A DNA stretch of 13,984 nt. It comes from a virus. Lineage: Duplodnaviria > Heunggongvirae > Uroviricota > Caudoviricetes. Made by a program: the position numbers and the translations under genes. The notes under the pieces were generated by a model. It did not search any database. It worked only from the letters and a program-made list of their open reading frames with translations, and was not told the origin of the DNA. Shown one piece after another: positions 1 to 8,915 of the stretch (position 1 is the stretch's first letter; each line of letters starts with the position of its first letter). The stretch is from the IMG/VR virus record IMGVR_UViG_2703718856_000007, positions 1 through 13,984 of that record, one strand, 5' to 3'.

Positions 1-1194
1 ATGATCACCGACACAAAGCTCAGGAAGGCGCTCGGCAAGAAAAGAGATGATATCGAGATTATTTCTGATTCGCACGGGCTCAACGCCAGAATCAGCCAGG
101 CCGGAAAAATATCATTTTTCTATCGGTATCGCTGGGCCGGTAAAGCGGTAAAACTCAATGTTGGTGATTATCCTGCAATGAGTATCACCCAGGCAAGAGA
201 GCGTCGCCAACAATTCAGAAACTGGTTAACTGAGGGACTGGATCCGCGAGAGCAGGTGAAGCTGGATAAGCAGACCCGACAGGAAGCGATGTCCGTTGCC
301 GAAGCGTTCAATTACTGGATTGAAAGGCACTGTATCGCTAACGGGCTAGTTAAAGTCGATTACTATCGCCAGGTGTTTGAGAAACATATCGCCGAACCGA
401 TGAAGAATGTCAAAGTCGATAACACAGCGAAAATGCACTGGATCAACGTCTTCGATTCTATAGAAAGCAGGGTGATGGCTCATTACATGCTTTCGCTGTG
501 CAAACGGGCGTTTAGGTTCTGCGTTAACAGAAGTGTGATCGCCTCAAACCCACTCGAGGGATTACTGCCATCTGATGTCGGGCAAAAGCCTAAAAAGAGA
601 ACTCGCAGGATGGACGATGACGATCTGCGCAAAATCTATCAGTGGTTGAAAAGCCATATGTCGATAGAGTCCGTTTTCCTGGTGAAATTTATTATGCTTA
701 CCGGATGCCGTACGGCTGAGATTCGACTTAGTGAGAGATCATGGTTTCGATTGGATGATAATGAGTGGGTCGTGCCTGCGGGCAGTTATAAAACTCGGGT
801 ACATATTAGAAGGGGACTCTCAGACGCCGCCGTTAACCTGGTCAGAAATCACCTCAAGAAAATAAACACCAATCACCTGGTGACTTCACAACGTAAAATT
901 GATGGCGGGATCAAAGATTCGCCCGTTCATTCACCTGTGGCATCCAATTACGCCCGTTCTATTTGGAATGGAACAGGTATGGCAGAGTGGTCGCTTCATG
1001 ATATGAGGCGGACGATAGCCACAAATCTCTCTGAGTTAGGTTGCCCGCCGCACGTAATTGAAAAGCTGCTCGGGCATCAGATGGTGGGGGTTATGGCGCA
1101 TTACAACCTTCATGACTATATCGATGATCAGAAACACTGGCTCCGCGTTTGGCAGAGCCATCTTGAAGAGATCATCGGAGAGCCCTTCAGTTAA
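1..1194 (+). CDS. int: Tyrosine recombinase / phage integrase (P4-type)
   Basis: 397-aa track ORF. N-terminus MITDTKLRK...FFYRYRW resembles the P4-type integrase N-terminal domain; C-terminus has the catalytic box [15 protein letters not shown]...LLGH...AHYNLHDY (H-x-x-R, H, Y) and TGCRTAE (box I Arg). The window starts at its ATG, so the true start could lie upstream. Confidence 0.85.
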
Positions 1195-1710: not shown

Positions 1711-2829
1711 TCAGGCCACGTATTCCGGTTTCATATCCGCCAGGGTGATGCTGAATTGATCGTGCAGTTCATCGCCTAAGTGACGCTTTGAAGATGCAAG
1801 CATGCGCTCGGCTTCAGCGAACCGTTCGGCTGCATGCGGCTCGTCGGGCTGGGGCAGGGATTTAATAGCCTCCTCAACCTTGTTGCGTGCATCCACTAGG
1901 TAATAACGCTTTACGGCTTTGTTTTTCAGCTCGGTGAATAGTGCGGATCCCAGCGTAGCTTTCGCCGTTTCAATGTCGGCACGCAGCGATTTGGCGCTAT
2001 CCACGTCCTGAGCAGATTCGATGCGTTCGCGGAAATCATCGGCAAGAGAGTCGACATTTACCGACGATTCCTGTGCGCTTTGCGTGGTTGTGACGGTGTC
2101 ACCTGAGATATCAGCCAGGCTAACGCGTTGCGGCGTTGGGTTGATCTCTTTTTCTGTGCGCTGTTCAATCTCATCAGGGGTGTACACACCAAGAACAACT
2201 GCAGGGCAATATAGGCGCGCCCAGTATTTGAGTGCCAGATAAGCGATCTGCTGTTTCGGGTTTGATACCCAAAGTGGAGAATTACGTGTGATTACGCTGG
2301 AGAGGAAAACAGGCTCTCCCCAGGTGATATCACTTTCACCGCGAATAACGGCACCTACCCGTACCGACAGTCCTTGTTCATCAGCACTTTCCCAACCGCG
2401 TACCATTTCTTTCTTGTCGTACGTCCCGCCACCTTTCGCAGGCTTTTTAACGGTTATCTCGCGGCTGCTGGCACATTTCGACCAGTCGCCCTCGTACTCA
2501 TAGTGAAAGCGGCCAACGATGGCGTTTGAGCTGGAGATCACCGCATTAACCAGTTGCGCTTCGTATCCCAGGACACCGTTAACCAGGTGCGTCTTTTGCG
2601 CCACGGCGTAAGGGTTCATACCCCACTGCATCGCCTGCATGATGATGGCCATGCAGTCTGCCGGATTGCCGCGGAGGTGCTCAGGCACCGTTACGGCTGC
2701 CTGTGCCATCAACCCGGCGACAGACTGAAGCTGGGTTAAAGCCTGCACGTTGAAAATGGCATTGCTGGCTGAGATCGTGTTTGGAGTCTGCTGTTCAGCG
2801 GTTACGATATTCGTGTTTTCCATCATCAT
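1711..2829 (-). CDS. recT: RecT/Redbeta-family single-strand annealing protein with a long C-terminal extension
   Basis: 372-aa ORF immediately downstream of recE. N-terminal CMAIIMQAMQWGMNPY matches the RecT-type helix pattern (MSFVSAIVQCSQLGLEPG in E. coli RecT, from memory); IAYLALKYWARLYCPAVVLG parallels RecT AIRRLFKYLPVSIEI. Three consecutive ATGs at the start; the first is taken. Confidence 0.65.
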   Translation of the reverse strand: MMMENTNIVTAEQQTPNTISASNAIFNVQALTQLQSVAGLMAQAAVTVPEHLRGNPADCMAIIMQAMQWGMNPYAVAQKTHLVNGVLGYEAQLVNAVISSSNAIVGRFHYEYEGDWSKCASSREITVKKPAKGGGTYDKKEMVRGWESADEQGLSVRVGAVIRGESDITWGEPVFLSSVITRNSPLWVSNPKQQIAYLALKYWARLYCPAVVLGVYTPDEIEQRTEKEINPTPQRVSLADISGDTVTTTQSAQESSVNVDSLADDFRERIESAQDVDSAKSLRADIETAKATLGSALFTELKNKAVKRYYLVDARNKVEEAIKSLPQPDEPHAAERFAEAERMLASSKRHLGDELHDQFSITLADMKPEYVA

Positions 2830-2834
2830 TCCCC

Positions 2835-5800
2835 TTATGCCTGAGTACGCAGCGCTTCAAGGCGGCGCAGGTCGAAGTCGTTCAGTTCGTCGGTGTAGTC
2901 AGCAGTGATTGGCGCTGGCCATTCACCTGTGTCGAATCCGGTTGCGATATTGCGCATCGCTTTGCGGTACTCGAGCATACCCAGCTCCAGTAGTTCAGCG
3001 GATGCCTCGATGATGGCGATCCAGTGGTAGTTCTCGTCTTTGTTGACGAAAATCCAGAAGAACTGATCCAGCGCTGCGGTTTCGCAGTACATAGCCGCGC
3101 TCAGGTGATAATCACGTTCAATAATTTCCCGGTGTAGCCTGGCGCGCAGGCTTTCCTGCTTAACATTCCACATGCTGATGGTTTTCAGGTCTGCACCTAT
3201 ACGCACGCCATCCAGGTCGATCTCAAGGTCAGGGCGCACACGAACTTCCAAGCCCGTCTCCTCGTCAAAACCAAAGTAGCTCACCTCAACGGCTCGGCTA
3301 GGGTGGGTCAGCAGCATGCCGGCGGTCGGGTGTGCCAGAAGCGCTTTTTGAATATTCAGCGCGGTGCTCAGCTGCTGGCGGGTGACCAGCACTTTTCCTT
3401 CCGGGTTATCGCGCCAGGCATCCAGCAGTTCGTCGGCAAATACGGCATCTGGTTTGACTGCCTTCACGGCCTGGATCATGTCTGCTTTGGTACCGGACAC
3501 TTTCAGTGGTGCCGGTTTCTGTGCTTCCTGAGCCACAAGGTCAGGGTTGATGATTGCCAACTGCTCCAGCAGCGCGTCACGGCTGCCGCTGGTTTTAACC
3601 GGCGGCGGCAGGGTGGCGTTGTACTCTTTAATGCATGCCTTCATTGCCGTCGCCGTCTGCTTCTGGTCACCATCAATACGCTGGAAGTCAGCTGGCAGCG
3701 CCATATAGTTCTGTGCCGTTTCTTCCAGGTTAGCGCCAAGCGGAACCTGCGGCGGCAGGGTGGCGTTGTACTCTTCCAGTAACACCTTGATGTTGTCGGC
3801 AGACAGCAGCGCCGGCAGGCTGGCATTGTGCTCATCGATAAAGGCGCGCAGGGTCGCGGCCGTTGTGAATGCGCCTTCAGGGATCACCGGTTCAACGCTG
3901 AATTCTGCGTCCAGTAGTTCAGGCTGCAACGCCAGCGCATGCACCAAGTTGCCCATGTCCAGCACCGCTGAGCGCTCTTTGACGATGGTTTTCTCTACGT
4001 GGCGCGCATTGAAGTACATCAGCGAAACGCGCGCATCTTTCACCTGGGTTGAGCTGATGCCGTTGGCGGCGTGGTAAACCTCGTTTGGCAGCCCTTCATA
4101 GCGGCCTGGCTCGAAATAAGCGGGATAAACAACAGCTGGTTCGTCAGATTGCGCTTCTGGCTCGGTTTGTGCTGCAACTGGTTCGGTTTGGCTTACAGAA
4201 TCGCTATTTTTGGCGACAGAATCCGTATTCTGGTCTACATCGTCCTTCTGGCTGGTATCTGACTCTTCACCAGACTCCAGACTGCTTTCGCCTGGCTGTA
4301 CTTCATCACCAGCTTGTTTTTCATCACTGACAGTTTCTTGAACCTGCACATTGCTGGTGGTCTCCGTAGCCTTTTTCGTGCCATGAGTTGCTGAGTTCTG
4401 CAGCAAAGCCGTAACGTCGAATATTCCGTTGCCGACATTTTTAACCAGTTCTTGTTCGACTTTCTGCGGTTGTGCTGCCGCTTCCTCTGCGCGGCGGCGT
4501 GCTCCTTCTTCACGCACGCGTTGCAGGTTCTCTTCGTGAGTGCAGAAGGATTTGCGCGGAGACTCCTTACCTTCAGGTTGGGGAATTTCCTGTGCTGCGG
4601 GTTCAGTCTCATGCAACGGCAATAACTCGACCGCGGAATTGAACGCGGCTGTCATGGTCTGGTTAACAAATTCCAGGTGAGCGACAGGAGTTAAATGAAT
4701 ATTTTCCGGTGCGATACGTACCAGGTTAAAAATAGCCGTGCGGTTAACACCCAGAACGCCTGGCTGATTGCGCAGGATGTTGCTCCATGATTTCCATGGT
4801 TCTTCTTTTTTGGTCACGATTTCTTTAGCGCGACGAAGAATGCTGCCCGGGATCTCGAAGTGGTTGAAGTCCATAGGCAGAAGGGCACACGCAATCTCTA
4901 AATCGAGAGTGTCCAGTGTGTGGTGTGCGTCAGGTCCACGGTCAGTGACGTAACCGCCGTCGGCATTAGTGCCGGAATCAGTACGCTGCACACTACTGAT
5001 GCGATTACCGGCGGCCCATTCGCGAACGAGGATACCGCGGTCGATGTGATCTGTAGCGAACCACAATTTCAAAAACTGGATTAAGGTTGCGAGTTCAGGG
5101 ATTTTTCCATCGACAGGGAAGACTTTCTTAACGGCATTCACGACTTTATGAATATCGTGCTCAATGGCTTTTTTGAATGCTTCCACATTCTCAGCTGCCA
5201 GCAGCAGGTTCTGGACGTACGCGTCATCGGTGTCCATCTCAAGGCGGACAATCTCATTTTTCTGCCCTGCGTCGATGTGATAGAGATATTCACCATCACC
5301 GATGAACTGAGCCAGTACGCGCTGGCGGAATGGCAGGGTGGCAACAACGATCAGGTTCGGTTGCTGTGTCTGCTGGGATTGCTCTTCGGTATCGACTTCA
5401 CCATCAACGACGCCACCTTCTGCCCGGCCGTTCTCGTCGGTCTGGATACCGTCCTCAACAGTGAGATCTTGACCCGTTGTAACGTCAGCAGCGTTGCTGG
5501 TTTCAGTTTTGAGCAACTGCAACTTACCACTGCGCCAGTCTTCTACCAGTTGATTGCGGTCACCGGCATCGGTGTTCACCCAGTCAGACATGAATGCAGC
5601 GATCAATCTTGGTTCGTGCTCTTCGTCTGGTGTGAAAATGTCCTTAACCGCCCGAATCATTTTCCACTCAGCATTCAGGCTGAGTTTGGCGGTCGCGGGC
5701 ACATCGTTCCTTGCCACAAGCAGGCTATGGAGATATGTATTGCCTTCATCCAGTGACATTTCGCTGGCAGCCAACTGCTGCTCTTTAGTGACGTGGGTTT

Positions 5801-6224
5801 GGTATTTATCGTTCATCAGATGGACGGCAAAGCGGACCGCTGGAGTACGGTTTTCAACCGGGACAATTTCGGACGCAGTCGCATCTTCAACGATTACGGT
5901 CGGAGTAGGTGTGTAGGGGGCGTCAACGGAACCAGTAGACACACCAGCGGCTTTTGGCAGCCAGGTGCGCCCATCGTCCTGAAGCTCGTAGCGATCACAC
6001 CAGGTAAAATCAACTTCACCTTCTTTCGGCAGGCCGTCGACAACTGGGAAATCAGTGCGAATCGGTTTGGCGTAGTCCTTACCCCGACCTGTTTCGATAC
6101 CTGCATCTTCCAGCGCAACATCCAGCATCAGATTGGCGCGAGCCTCGGTTTTAGCAGTGAACCAGACCACTGCATCTTGCTTTCCGGATTTCTGAGTGGC
6201 TTTAACCACATTAAAGAATTCCAT
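2835..6224 (-). CDS. recE: Exonuclease VIII (RecE-like), large 1129-aa form
   Basis: N-terminal DFPVVDGLPKEGEVDFTWCDRYEL and REWAAGNRISSVQRTDSGTNADGGYVTDRG closely parallel E. coli Rac RecE motifs (NFPVVNDLPAEGEIDFTW..., [30 protein letters not shown]) as recalled. C-terminal nuclease-like region ends ...GEWP. RBS GAGGAT upstream of the ATG at 6224. Confidence 0.85.
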   Translation of the reverse strand: MEFFNVVKATQKSGKQDAVVWFTAKTEARANLMLDVALEDAGIETGRGKDYAKPIRTDFPVVDGLPKEGEVDFTWCDRYELQDDGRTWLPKAAGVSTGSVDAPYTPTPTVIVEDATASEIVPVENRTPAVRFAVHLMNDKYQTHVTKEQQLAASEMSLDEGNTYLHSLLVARNDVPATAKLSLNAEWKMIRAVKDIFTPDEEHEPRLIAAFMSDWVNTDAGDRNQLVEDWRSGKLQLLKTETSNAADVTTGQDLTVEDGIQTDENGRAEGGVVDGEVDTEEQSQQTQQPNLIVVATLPFRQRVLAQFIGDGEYLYHIDAGQKNEIVRLEMDTDDAYVQNLLLAAENVEAFKKAIEHDIHKVVNAVKKVFPVDGKIPELATLIQFLKLWFATDHIDRGILVREWAAGNRISSVQRTDSGTNADGGYVTDRGPDAHHTLDTLDLEIACALLPMDFNHFEIPGSILRRAKEIVTKKEEPWKSWSNILRNQPGVLGVNRTAIFNLVRIAPENIHLTPVAHLEFVNQTMTAAFNSAVELLPLHETEPAAQEIPQPEGKESPRKSFCTHEENLQRVREEGARRRAEEAAAQPQKVEQELVKNVGNGIFDVTALLQNSATHGTKKATETTSNVQVQETVSDEKQAGDEVQPGESSLESGEESDTSQKDDVDQNTDSVAKNSDSVSQTEPVAAQTEPEAQSDEPAVVYPAYFEPGRYEGLPNEVYHAANGISSTQVKDARVSLMYFNARHVEKTIVKERSAVLDMGNLVHALALQPELLDAEFSVEPVIPEGAFTTAATLRAFIDEHNASLPALLSADNIKVLLEEYNATLPPQVPLGANLEETAQNYMALPADFQRIDGDQKQTATAMKACIKEYNATLPPPVKTSGSRDALLEQLAIINPDLVAQEAQKPAPLKVSGTKADMIQAVKAVKPDAVFADELLDAWRDNPEGKVLVTRQQLSTALNIQKALLAHPTAGMLLTHPSRAVEVSYFGFDEETGLEVRVRPDLEIDLDGVRIGADLKTISMWNVKQESLRARLHREIIERDYHLSAAMYCETAALDQFFWIFVNKDENYHWIAIIEASAELLELGMLEYRKAMRNIATGFDTGEWPAPITADYTDELNDFDLRRLEALRTQA
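3604..3837. repeat. Internal 147-bp-period direct repeats within recE
   Basis: 26-bp identical segments at ~3604-3629 and ~3751-3776 (cggcggcagggtggcgttgtactctt), plus a degenerate third copy at ~3811-3837. On the minus strand they encode three EYNATLPP/EHNASLPA motifs spaced 49 codons apart. Confidence 0.6.
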
Positions 6225-6363
6225 GTGAGATCCTCATTTTTGGGTGTTAGAATCCCCGGACCATTGATAGCGCCCATTGGGTTAACTTTGGTTTTAATGT
6301 TGTTTCCGGTGTAACTTTGGTCGGTACCACCAGACGTAGATCCCGCCTTGCGCGGGTTTTACG

Positions 6364-6525
6364 TTAGCCTTCGTGAGCCATCTGGTCGTGCGAAGCGCAA
6401 CGTTTGGAGCAATACTCTTTTTCTTTGCGCGCCAGCTGTGAGCCGTTGCGATAGAGAAGGGTGCTCTTGATTACTTCCTCCGTTTTAACCGGCTTGCCGC
6501 AATATCCGCATTTCTTGTCTAACAT
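6364..6525 (-). CDS. Small zinc-ribbon-like protein (53 aa; CxxC...CxxxC), not in ORF track
   Basis: Manual translation: MLDKKCGYCGKPVKTEEVIKSTLLYRNGSQLARKEKEYCSKRCASHDQMAHEG. Strong SD GGAGGA 4-5 nt upstream of the ATG. Sits between the upstream small gene (stop 6537) and recE, co-oriented. Confidence 0.5.
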   Translation of the reverse strand: MLDKKCGYCGKPVKTEEVIKSTLLYRNGSQLARKEKEYCSKRCASHDQMAHEG

Positions 6526-6536
6526 GACATCCTCCG

Positions 6537-7413: not shown

Positions 7414-8331
7414 CTACCAGTTCGGTAGCTCACGCAAAGAATACTTAGGCTTTCCATTACCTACCTGAGTGCAGAGGAATTTTGCAATAACTTTTTCTCC
7501 GCGGTGATCGTTGATAATGTCTGGATTGTCTATGTAATTACTGATTTTCGCTACAAAAATTGATTTAGATTCATCATGCTCCATAATAAACTCGCATTGA
7601 CGTTTATGAGGAAGAGCTCCCAAGAAGCTAACTTCTAATAACTGCAAATCTTCTTTAACACTATCTTTACTTAGCTTGAGGACCGCTCTTTCAATATCAT
7701 TGATATTGTTTGCAACAAGCGCTTGGTTGTTATGCCTTAAAGTAAAAGTTGCTTTGTTATCAAATAGTATTTGTATAAATCCACGTATTTTATCTAAAGC
7801 TCGGTCATCCAAATCACTAATCGCCTCAGCTAGACCATCATCGTCTCCCCTTATACTCATTTGCAGGATAGATTGAGTCTGGTTCAGAGCTTTTTGAACA
7901 GAAGATTCCTCATCAAAGTTAAGCGGGGCATCTGGCCTAAATTCCTCAAGTGTAAATCCAAAAGAACCTTTGGCTGTTCCAGTAATCATAAGCAAATTAT
8001 TTTCAAGATTTGGAATTTTACCTTTGGCCGGTAATTTCCCTGAAAATGAAGATGCAACATGAGAAACCGCATCATTAAAGGCGTTAACTATTTTGGTTCC
8101 GAAATTTGCAGCTATGCCATATGTACCAAGTACAGGGGCTCCTCTGAATGTTAAAGTGGCTTTAACTGGCGGATGCTCATCGATAACAATATGAGAAATC
8201 TCATCATTTAGCTCATGGAGCCTGCTTTCAAGGCTCATTTTGCCAATAATGTCATCATCAGTAGTGGTTTCTAAAAGAGACAGGATTGAGTCCCGCTCAC
8301 TTAGAACGAACAAGTAATCGTCGCGATTCAT
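7414..8331 (-). CDS. Hypothetical protein B of AT-rich cassette (305 aa), unknown family
   Basis: Long track ORF in a low-GC segment; start ATG overlaps the stop of upstream gene A by 4 nt (ATGA). Hydrophilic, no transmembrane segment, no Walker motif; no family recognised. Confidence 0.75.
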   Translation of the reverse strand: MNRDDYLFVLSERDSILSLLETTTDDDIIGKMSLESRLHELNDEISHIVIDEHPPVKATLTFRGAPVLGTYGIAANFGTKIVNAFNDAVSHVASSFSGKLPAKGKIPNLENNLLMITGTAKGSFGFTLEEFRPDAPLNFDEESSVQKALNQTQSILQMSIRGDDDGLAEAISDLDDRALDKIRGFIQILFDNKATFTLRHNNQALVANNINDIERAVLKLSKDSVKEDLQLLEVSFLGALPHKRQCEFIMEHDESKSIFVAKISNYIDNPDIINDHRGEKVIAKFLCTQVGNGKPKYSLRELPNW

Positions 8332-8915
8332 TGCTCACCTCCTTCTGATAGCATTGTTTCTAAAATGGTTAATGCCTGTTGATCCAGTGTAATATCTAGA
8401 GGAATCTGCAAGAATCCCTTCCATGTAAGATCCCTTCTATGAGACCACATACTGTACCAATATACAGTCCTTTCTACAAGCTGCTCCTTAGAAACGCCCA
8501 GTGACTGGAAGTAAGAATCAACTCTAAACTCTTGCTTTCTCCACTTACCCATATGTGGCACAAACAGATTCGGGTTACGCATAACGACATCTTGCTGCGT
8601 TTCGTTAAACGCCAAATTAAAAAAAGTCACAACATCAATGTCATTTGGCGGACGTTTTTCAATGAGTTCAACATCTTCTATGAAACTACCATCGATCCAT
8701 TGAAAACCATCCGTTAACCCAGTTTTATTAATTTCTTTACGAAATTTGATGAAACCGAGTAAGATCTCGATCCTTTGTGGGCTTGTAGCGTACCGCTCTA
8801 CAAATTTTAATATATCTGTCTTATATGGGGAGCGATAGGCGCTGGTTGGATGCTCCATATCCATTGGTGGGATTACACCAATTTCATTCCAGTTAGGAAT
8901 TTCCTGAATCACCAT
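8328..8915 (-). CDS. Hypothetical protein A of AT-rich cassette (195 aa), possible minimal nucleotidyltransferase-like motif
   Basis: Track ORF with AAGG about 8 nt before the ATG. Candidate own promoter on the minus strand: -35 TTGAAA (8963-8968), 17-bp spacer, -10 TACAAC (8940-8945). Motif WIDGSF-x14-DIDVV is reminiscent of the GS...DxD nucleotidyltransferase signature, though the spacing is atypical. Confidence 0.75.
   Translation of the reverse strand: MVIQEIPNWNEIGVIPPMDMEHPTSAYRSPYKTDILKFVERYATSPQRIEILLGFIKFRKEINKTGLTDGFQWIDGSFIEDVELIEKRPPNDIDVVTFFNLAFNETQQDVVMRNPNLFVPHMGKWRKQEFRVDSYFQSLGVSKEQLVERTVYWYSMWSHRRDLTWKGFLQIPLDITLDQQALTILETMLSEGGEQ

Follow-up and report, generated by a model that had tools for sequence, protein, structure and literature searches.

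A YdaE-family zinc-finger gene next to recE in a lambdoid prophage and its possible association with phage recombination modules

The gene considered here, open reading frame (ORF) 6364..6525 on the minus strand of a Caudoviricetes record (IMG/VR IMGVR_UViG_2703718856_000007, whose 13,984 nucleotides (nt) are called the window below), has its closest described counterparts in the Rac prophage of Escherichia coli K-12 and in phage mEp237. The K-12 gene, ydaE (b4526), belongs to NCBIfam family NF041288 (YdaE_coli) and to Pfam family PF27493, and its RefSeq product name is ‘zinc-binding protein’; the protein reportedly binds one zinc ion through four cysteines. Genes of the Rac leftward operon follow the order kilR - ydaE - racC - recE - recT. 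When RacR is silenced or displaced, ydaE is derepressed with kilR, racC, recE and recT (bioRxiv 10.64898/2026.09.06.749655; PMC11014345); this joint derepression agrees with a single leftward operon. PMC6892955 credits the zinc binding of K-12 YdaE to Blindauer et al. 2002 (Mol Microbiol 45:1421). The mEp237 counterpart, gp32, is named ‘hypothetical protein’ in its record.

We found that ORF 6364..6525 is almost certainly ydaE and encodes a YdaE-family protein. The finding as such adds little: gene, family and zinc binding had all been recorded before, and an identical protein is publicly named. The comparative result is that a 50-residue finger with a near-invariant end accompanies nucleases and annealases of unrelated families, in phages whose hosts are Gram-negative as well as Gram-positive. 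Taken as a whole, the evidence leads us to favor, as a rather probable explanation, a lambdoid-prophage ydaE whose product is a zinc finger of the treble-clef kind and an accessory factor of the recombination module.

The ORF has 53 codons plus a stop and an ATG start, and its translation is exactly MLDKKCGYCGKPVKTEEVIKSTLLYRNGSQLARKEKEYCSKRCASHDQMAHEG. The window contains 105 ORFs of at least 40 amino acids (aa), so that a 53-aa ORF by itself is within chance and the case for a gene has to rest on comparative evidence. The protein scored 94 bits against NF041288 (cut-off 35), with residues 4-53 aligned to profile positions 1-50 of 50, and matched phrog_1520 with an E-value of 1.1e-27. Along with the NF041288 score, it has the four cysteines (C-x2/4-C ... 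C-x3-C) and the terminal DQMAHE motif of the family. Among 45 distinct 162-nt alleles, with the window allele as reference, the ratio of nonsynonymous to synonymous polymorphism (pN/pS) was 0.16 in the ydaE frame; the values in the other five frames were 1.2-2.2 in four and 0.24 in the antisense frame with coinciding third positions. Internal stops in ydaE were seen in 0 of 178 related loci. Given the family match, the low pN/pS and the uninterrupted frame, the ORF is, as judged by sequence comparison, a real gene.

A protein identical to the translation, WP_000884659.1, is present with the same gene order in the RefSeq annotation of E. coli ECCRA-119. In a search of 5.8 billion proteins 58 clusters were matched, all with PF27493; ‘YdaE family protein’ is the name of many, and the genera represented are Citrobacter, Escherichia, Enterobacter, Klebsiella, Kosakonia, Erwinia and Salmonella. 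Two of these clusters (P0054 and P0055) appear frameshifted near the C-terminus. An earlier description made from the letters alone (the sequence-only reading) had called the gene unannotated, which does not hold as a general statement given that the identical protein is named ‘YdaE family protein’ in RefSeq. The identity that it gave, ydaE, was right, in view of the NF041288 match and of the place of K-12 ydaE between kilR and recE (with racC intervening). The coordinates, the translation and the GGAGGA Shine-Dalgarno sequence are all as that reading gave them, and the CxxC...CxxxC pattern that it pointed out is present as C6-x2-C9 ... C39-x3-C43. Its proposal depended on homologs with conserved cysteines and on a frame left undisrupted in relatives; homologs do keep the cysteines, and the frame is intact. 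The elements of the gene are as follows.

6364..6525, minus strand: ydaE coding sequence (NF041288, phrog_1520, pN/pS, identity with WP_000884659.1 and mEp237 gp32)
6535..6530, minus strand: Shine-Dalgarno sequence GGAGGA, read from the sequence; 4 nt (TGTC) follow, then the ATG at 6525
6499..6510, minus strand: predicted first zinc knuckle C6-G-Y-C9 (C6, Y8 and C9 invariant in 50 diverse domain sequences)
6397..6414, minus strand: predicted second zinc knuckle Y38-C39-S40-K-R-C43, FCS-type ‘YCSxxC’ (C39 and C43 invariant, Y38 at least 90% conserved)
6367..6387, minus strand: C-terminal motif D47-Q-M-A-H-E-G53, the extreme end of the protein (conserved in 50 distant domain sequences)

Window YdaE and mEp237 gp32 have identical amino-acid sequences, and the order kil - ydaE - recE - recT is common to both genomes; recE of mEp237 is shorter (2910 nt versus 3390 nt in the window). 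K-12 YdaE is 38% identical to window YdaE. The two proteins share the four-cysteine scheme and the C-terminus ‘YCSxxCAxxDQMAHE’, while the first knuckle is C-x4-C (CAYHLC) in K-12 YdaE and some relatives and C-x2-C in window YdaE. In both prophages ydaE comes after kil and before recE; K-12 has racC between ydaE and recE, where the window has a 139-nt non-coding spacer.

By sequence comparison it is well supported that the positions of C6, C9, C39 and C43 allow them to hold a single zinc ion. The ligand pattern C6-X2-C9-X28-Y38-C39-S40-X2-C43 fits the zf-FCS consensus CX2CX14-30FCSX2C (PMC4047054), with Y replacing F. The predicted fold, a TRASH/FCS-type treble clef in which a zinc knuckle is followed by a long beta-hairpin, the second knuckle ‘YCSxxC’ and a C-terminal helix, comes nearest to that of ribosomal protein eL24. 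In the AlphaFold2 (AF2) model of window YdaE, with a predicted local distance difference test score (pLDDT) of 81 reached by only two of five models, a knuckle is combined with a long beta-hairpin (residues 19-27 and 30-38) and a helix (41-50); the DQMAHE(G) motif falls in and right after this helix. The term ‘zinc-ribbon’, used in the sequence-only reading, has to be replaced, as the AF2 model and the fold matches indicate a treble clef of this type. Kinship with TraR/DksA, also suggested there, found no backing: no such Pfam match appeared even at E <= 5, and the AF2 model is without a coiled coil.

The TRASH clan includes L24e, YHS, MYND, HIT, MYM/zf-FCS type and DUF329 members (PMC4047054). 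Weak Pfam matches of window YdaE point to this group as well, all of them below threshold: YacG 13.8 bits (cut-off 25.5), MYND 12.7 (22.7) and DUF2256 12.3 (25). DUF329 is YacG, and MerB2 and NosL group with the TRASH-clan fingers as well. Sequence profiles built from two alignments (A2 and A4) gave no significant whole-domain match to solved structures; eL24 matches spanning both knuckles had E-values of 0.3-0.5 with A4, and the best value with A2 was 0.023 with the individual aligned stretches non-significant. On the model, window YdaE is called a TRASH/FCS-like treble clef that is not assigned to any curated TRASH-clan family. Compared with eL24, YHS, MYM/zf-FCS, MYND and HIT fingers, YdaE has a longer beta-hairpin and a 29-residue spacer between C9 and C39, and nothing in those families corresponds to its invariant DQMAHE(G) end.

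Several other relationships were considered and rejected. Comparison by hhalign with E. coli YacG, the DNA gyrase inhibitor, aligned both knuckles (E 2.5e-4, probability only 43%), which speaks for a fold of the TRASH type but not for membership in the YacG family. YacG is without the long hairpin of YdaE, and the alignment, which covers YacG residues 6-36 only, ends at residue 36 of 65. The C-terminal tail of YacG binds GyrB; YdaE terminates 10 residues past its last cysteine and has no equivalent tail, and with the Pfam score below cut-off as well, identity as a YacG gyrase inhibitor was rejected. Low-E matches of the A4 profile (e.g. Gfi-1, 2.4e-5) came from C2H2 fingers that align to the first ‘CxYCGK’ knuckle only. 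One long form of the domain (see below) matched the NinG PHROG at 6.9e-5; a relationship to the N-terminal finger of lambda NinG/Rap was set aside, since hhalign of the domain profile with lambda NinG gave a probability of 2.7%, over the second knuckle only. A Foldseek search against viral predicted structures returned uncharacterised proteins only, none at E <= 0.001.

The domain reaches well beyond lambdoid prophages. An exhaustive search by profile through 1.8 billion representatives turned up 165 clusters with a YdaE domain, and genome matches included Paenibacillus, Cohnella, Acidobacteria and metagenome-assembled genomes (MAGs) of Clostridiales and Paceibacterota. C6, Y8, C9, C39, C43 and E52 are invariant across the 50 diverse domain sequences, with D47, Q48, M49, A50 and H51, like Y38, conserved in at least 90%; the four cysteines and the C-terminal DQMAHE(G) are kept from Enterobacteriaceae to Paenibacillus and Acidobacteria. 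The DQMAHE-ending pattern lies at the C-terminus or at most one residue from it in 103 of the 150 distant representatives listed (the others include fragments), and most of those 103 terminate exactly in ...DQMAHEG. About half of the listed representatives are proteins of ∼190 aa in which the YdaE domain forms the very C-terminus, behind an N-terminal domain that is uncharacterised. These long forms dominate the diversity of the domain. Neither Pfam nor PHROG gave a match for their N-terminal domain, the AF2 model of a long form is confident (pLDDT 88.8), and examination of the long forms for a Rosetta-stone hint gave no functional clue.

Gene neighbourhoods were compared across 131 unique YdaE loci, 122 of them informative downstream and 128 informative for kil. 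On the same strand, recE lies directly downstream of ydaE in 115 of 122 loci; the gap between the two genes measures 125-160 nt in 80 of these loci, and in the other 35 it measures 500-660 nt. A kil-like gene was found upstream of ydaE in only 56 of 128 loci. In unrelated phages (G+C content 0.31-0.63), the short form of YdaE sits inside or beside recombination modules of varied composition, listed here by locus with the genes in order.

L188: RecE-like exonuclease, YdaE, RecT
L190: YdaE, exonuclease VIII-like nuclease, RecT
L191: SbcC-like protein, YdaE, RecT/Bet-like annealase, metallo-beta-lactamase (MBL) hydrolase, ORF resembling single-stranded DNA-binding protein (judged from sequence alone)
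L192: lambda-Exo-like protein, YdaE
L193: RecT, MBL-like ORF (judged from sequence alone), YdaE
L194: SbcD, SbcC, small ORF, YdaE
L198: Erf, Exo, unknown ORF, YdaE
L177-L179 (Paenibacillus, Cohnella): annealase-like protein (phrog_10048), SbcD, YdaE, SbcC
L169: YqaJ exonuclease, annealase-like protein, YdaE

The sequence-only reading had proposed a small zinc-binding regulator or host-interaction factor; the gene neighbourhoods point more specifically to phage recombination. From this neighbourhood, the strongest lead to a function, we tentatively propose that YdaE assists the exonuclease/annealase recombination module of phages as an accessory factor, a role that is the best supported of those considered and that we hold to be possible though short of an even chance. 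The nuclease and annealase families are swapped while the finger and the motif stay constant, which argues that the role belongs to the process and not to a single enzyme. If so, YdaE would probably act through the surface formed by its near-invariant C-terminal DQMAHE(G), and the likely target would be something common to all these systems, such as a DNA end, an intermediate of recombination or a host factor of wide conservation; that it binds one given nuclease directly would be less likely. A broader conjecture, more doubtful still, is that the YdaE finger may be a widespread unrecognised third component of RecET, Exo/Bet-like and SbcCD-based systems, with DQMAHE(G) acting on a common target, for instance in protecting or handing over DNA ends; on this conjecture its omission from RecET recombineering cassettes would be a functional loss. 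Were a part in recombination or DNA-end protection true, YdaE would be a missing part of the RecET-type systems widely used in genome engineering, and a K-12 gene without a function for decades would have one.

A number of observations weigh against this proposal. The evidence for the role is gene neighbourhood alone, and no paper or experiment in the literature assigns YdaE a function. Because the Enterobacteriaceae loci are related mosaics, the 115 of 122 loci with recE downstream are not 115 independent observations. The neighbourhoods of the ∼190-aa long forms are early or replication regions of phages without clear recombination genes. Kil-YdaE fusions at two loci (described below) suggest another partner. 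Lastly, a DNA-binding surface would not typically be acidic and rich in histidine, as the invariant C-terminal motif is. The high-throughput phenotypes for ydaE are scattered: a fitness phenotype under chemical stress in transposon sequencing (PMC5064937), reduced susceptibility to attack by the type VI secretion system (PMC7012810) and a shift in the minimal inhibitory concentration of kanamycin (PMC12924614).

Family scans of its genes identify the window as the early region of a lambdoid prophage, the left part of which shares 98% identity with phages mEp237 and HK225. The gene ydaE belongs to the early operon that runs leftward as kil - ydaE - recE - recT, with the following neighbours.

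1..1194, plus strand: integrase
1711..2829, minus strand: recT, single-strand annealing protein (Pfam RecT, 2.5e-36)
2835..6224, minus strand: recE, exonuclease VIII family, 1129 aa (Pfam Exonuc_VIII, 3.4e-32; DUF3799, PDDEXK-like, 7.7e-10)
6225..6363, minus strand: conserved non-coding spacer of 139 nt, from ydaE to recE
6342..6356: G+C-rich hairpin CCCGC-GCAAG-GCGGG, directly after the ydaE stop codon
6537..6743, minus strand: kil-like gene, 68 aa, FtsZ-inhibitor relative (phrog_294 ‘Kil protein’, 9.7e-34; NF008465 at 67 bits, below the cut-off of 92)

The integrase gene is followed by DUF4060, recT, recE, ydaE, the kil-like gene, a small ORF and a two-gene cassette, and beyond the cassette lie genes for an S24-type repressor, a cro/YdaS-like protein, cII, O, a DnaC-like loader and ren. 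The kil-like gene ends 11 nt before the ydaE start. The sequence-only reading had ydaE tightly packed between its neighbours; this is so upstream, toward the kil-like gene, but not downstream, where the spacer separates ydaE from recE.

The order of genes in lambda, cIII-kil-gam-bet-exo, places gam after kil and ahead of the recombination genes, where the window has ydaE. This shared map slot makes a Gam-like role, protecting ends or acting against nucleases, a serious rival: YdaE might be a functional analogue of lambda Gam that shields linear phage DNA by blocking or capping against the end-processing nucleases of the host (RecBCD, AddAB or SbcCD) and does not assist the enzymes of the phage itself. 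Relatives of lambda gam, bet or exo were found within the fetched flanks of none of the 131 unique loci, which speaks for the analogy, and the association of YdaE is independent of the nuclease or annealase family present. The absence of gam is confounded, however, as gam travels with exo and bet and ydaE travels with recE. Map position is all that the two proteins have in common; YdaE shows no sequence or fold similarity to Gam and no Pfam or PHROG match of this kind, and it resembles no known inhibitor. Gam and T7 gp5.9 are acidic DNA mimics, whereas YdaE has a net charge of about +4 (counted from the sequence), which is the opposite charge character. Hosts of YdaE phages also differ in their end-processing nucleases while the motif stays invariant. 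A literature search on racC, recE and a RecBCD inhibitor together found nothing relevant. We consider the analogy with Gam unlikely.

The spacer between ydaE and recE bears on another alternative, in which YdaE would be a nucleic-acid-binding regulator of the operon that tunes recE and recT, e.g. by acting on spacer RNA or DNA. Mean divergence across 40 loci was 0.063 in the spacer versus 0.129 at ydaE third codon positions, i.e. about half; the spacer is thus about as conserved as constrained codon positions, and it has blocks that are near-identical even in the most divergent locus (L120). Predicted pairing in the spacer covers the recE Shine-Dalgarno sequence. YdaE is basic by residue count, and eL24 is an rRNA-binding protein. 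Some FCS/TRASH fingers bind RNA or DNA (PMC4047054). On the other side, no covariation indicates an RNA structure in the spacer, and relatives in other phyla with wholly different flanks retain the invariant motif. Regulation of the operon by YdaE appears improbable to us.

Two further candidates concerning the spacer were tried and rejected. A defined RNA element was not upheld, with no Rfam match in the window, a folding z-score of -1.4 and no covariation or compensatory changes in the spacer. A −1 frameshift linking the 49-aa ORF 6128..6277 to recE was set aside, as the sequence lacks a canonical slippery site and the frame of recE is closed by a TGA four codons ahead of its ATG. The hairpin after the ydaE stop codon has its T-run on the plus strand only, so that it could serve as an intrinsic terminator only when transcription runs opposite to the operon.

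A partnership with Kil, in which YdaE would modulate this cell-division inhibitor, is less probable again. It could account for the closeness of the kil-like gene in the window and for natural in-frame Kil-YdaE fusions of 124 aa, which were found at L117 (4791..5165) and L147 (4791..5165), two contigs differing in sequence; the representative protein P0062 has the same architecture. Nevertheless, loss of a single stop codon can fuse two genes 11 nt apart, and Kil is the less constant neighbour (56 of 128 loci as compared with 115 of 122 for recE). Relatives of YdaE outside Enterobacteriaceae are without Kil.

The weakest alternative, a metallothionein-like zinc buffer or chaperone as some papers have it, can draw on the label ‘putative zinc chaperone’ given to YdaE in PMC6892955 and on a low-scoring match to the Pfam model of prokaryotic metallothionein (15 bits versus a cut-off of 33), but it is very improbable, given that four cysteines suffice for one structural site only, that ydaE lies within a repressed prophage operon, that its presence did not follow zinc tolerance in PMC6892955 and that conservation is centred on the non-cysteine C-terminal motif. 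As to a family assignment, the SmtA/BmtA bacterial metallothioneins were rejected, since the Metallothio_Pro match spans residues 31-47 only and YdaE has just four cysteines.

Some further features of these loci were observed. The slot directly upstream of ydaE varies in content (L080, L129, L141, L145, L149, L153, L155, L162, L171 and L175): in many loci without kil it is taken by a ∼40-aa ORF, MIDFARKPGRQQAVKLNFFEVILRRLCYLLAQKGNPDV and variants, and in others by a ∼66-aa ORF (MKTSNAVPNNGRAIPMRN...). One locus assigned to an Atopobium sp. MAG (L168, JAGZNE010000119.1, 1.5 kb) has an enterobacterial-type kil - ydaE - recE start with ∼90% protein identity, and is probably a binning contaminant.

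RecE itself differs along its length. When window RecE was compared with loci L004-L083, the C-terminal nuclease part was mostly 87-99% identical, with a minority near 57%, while identity over the first 300 residues ranged from 31% to 100% and total length was variable; by these comparisons the N-terminal region of RecE is a mosaic hot spot.

The cassette between the kil region and the repressor consists of two overlapping genes on the minus strand, 7414..8331 and 8328..8915. One encodes a 195-aa protein of family DUF6932 (6e-29) that also matches the PADLOC candidate defence family PDC-M63A (2.7e-11). Its 305-aa partner has no family match, and the cassette occupies a site that in lambdoid phages is often home to genes for exclusion or defence.
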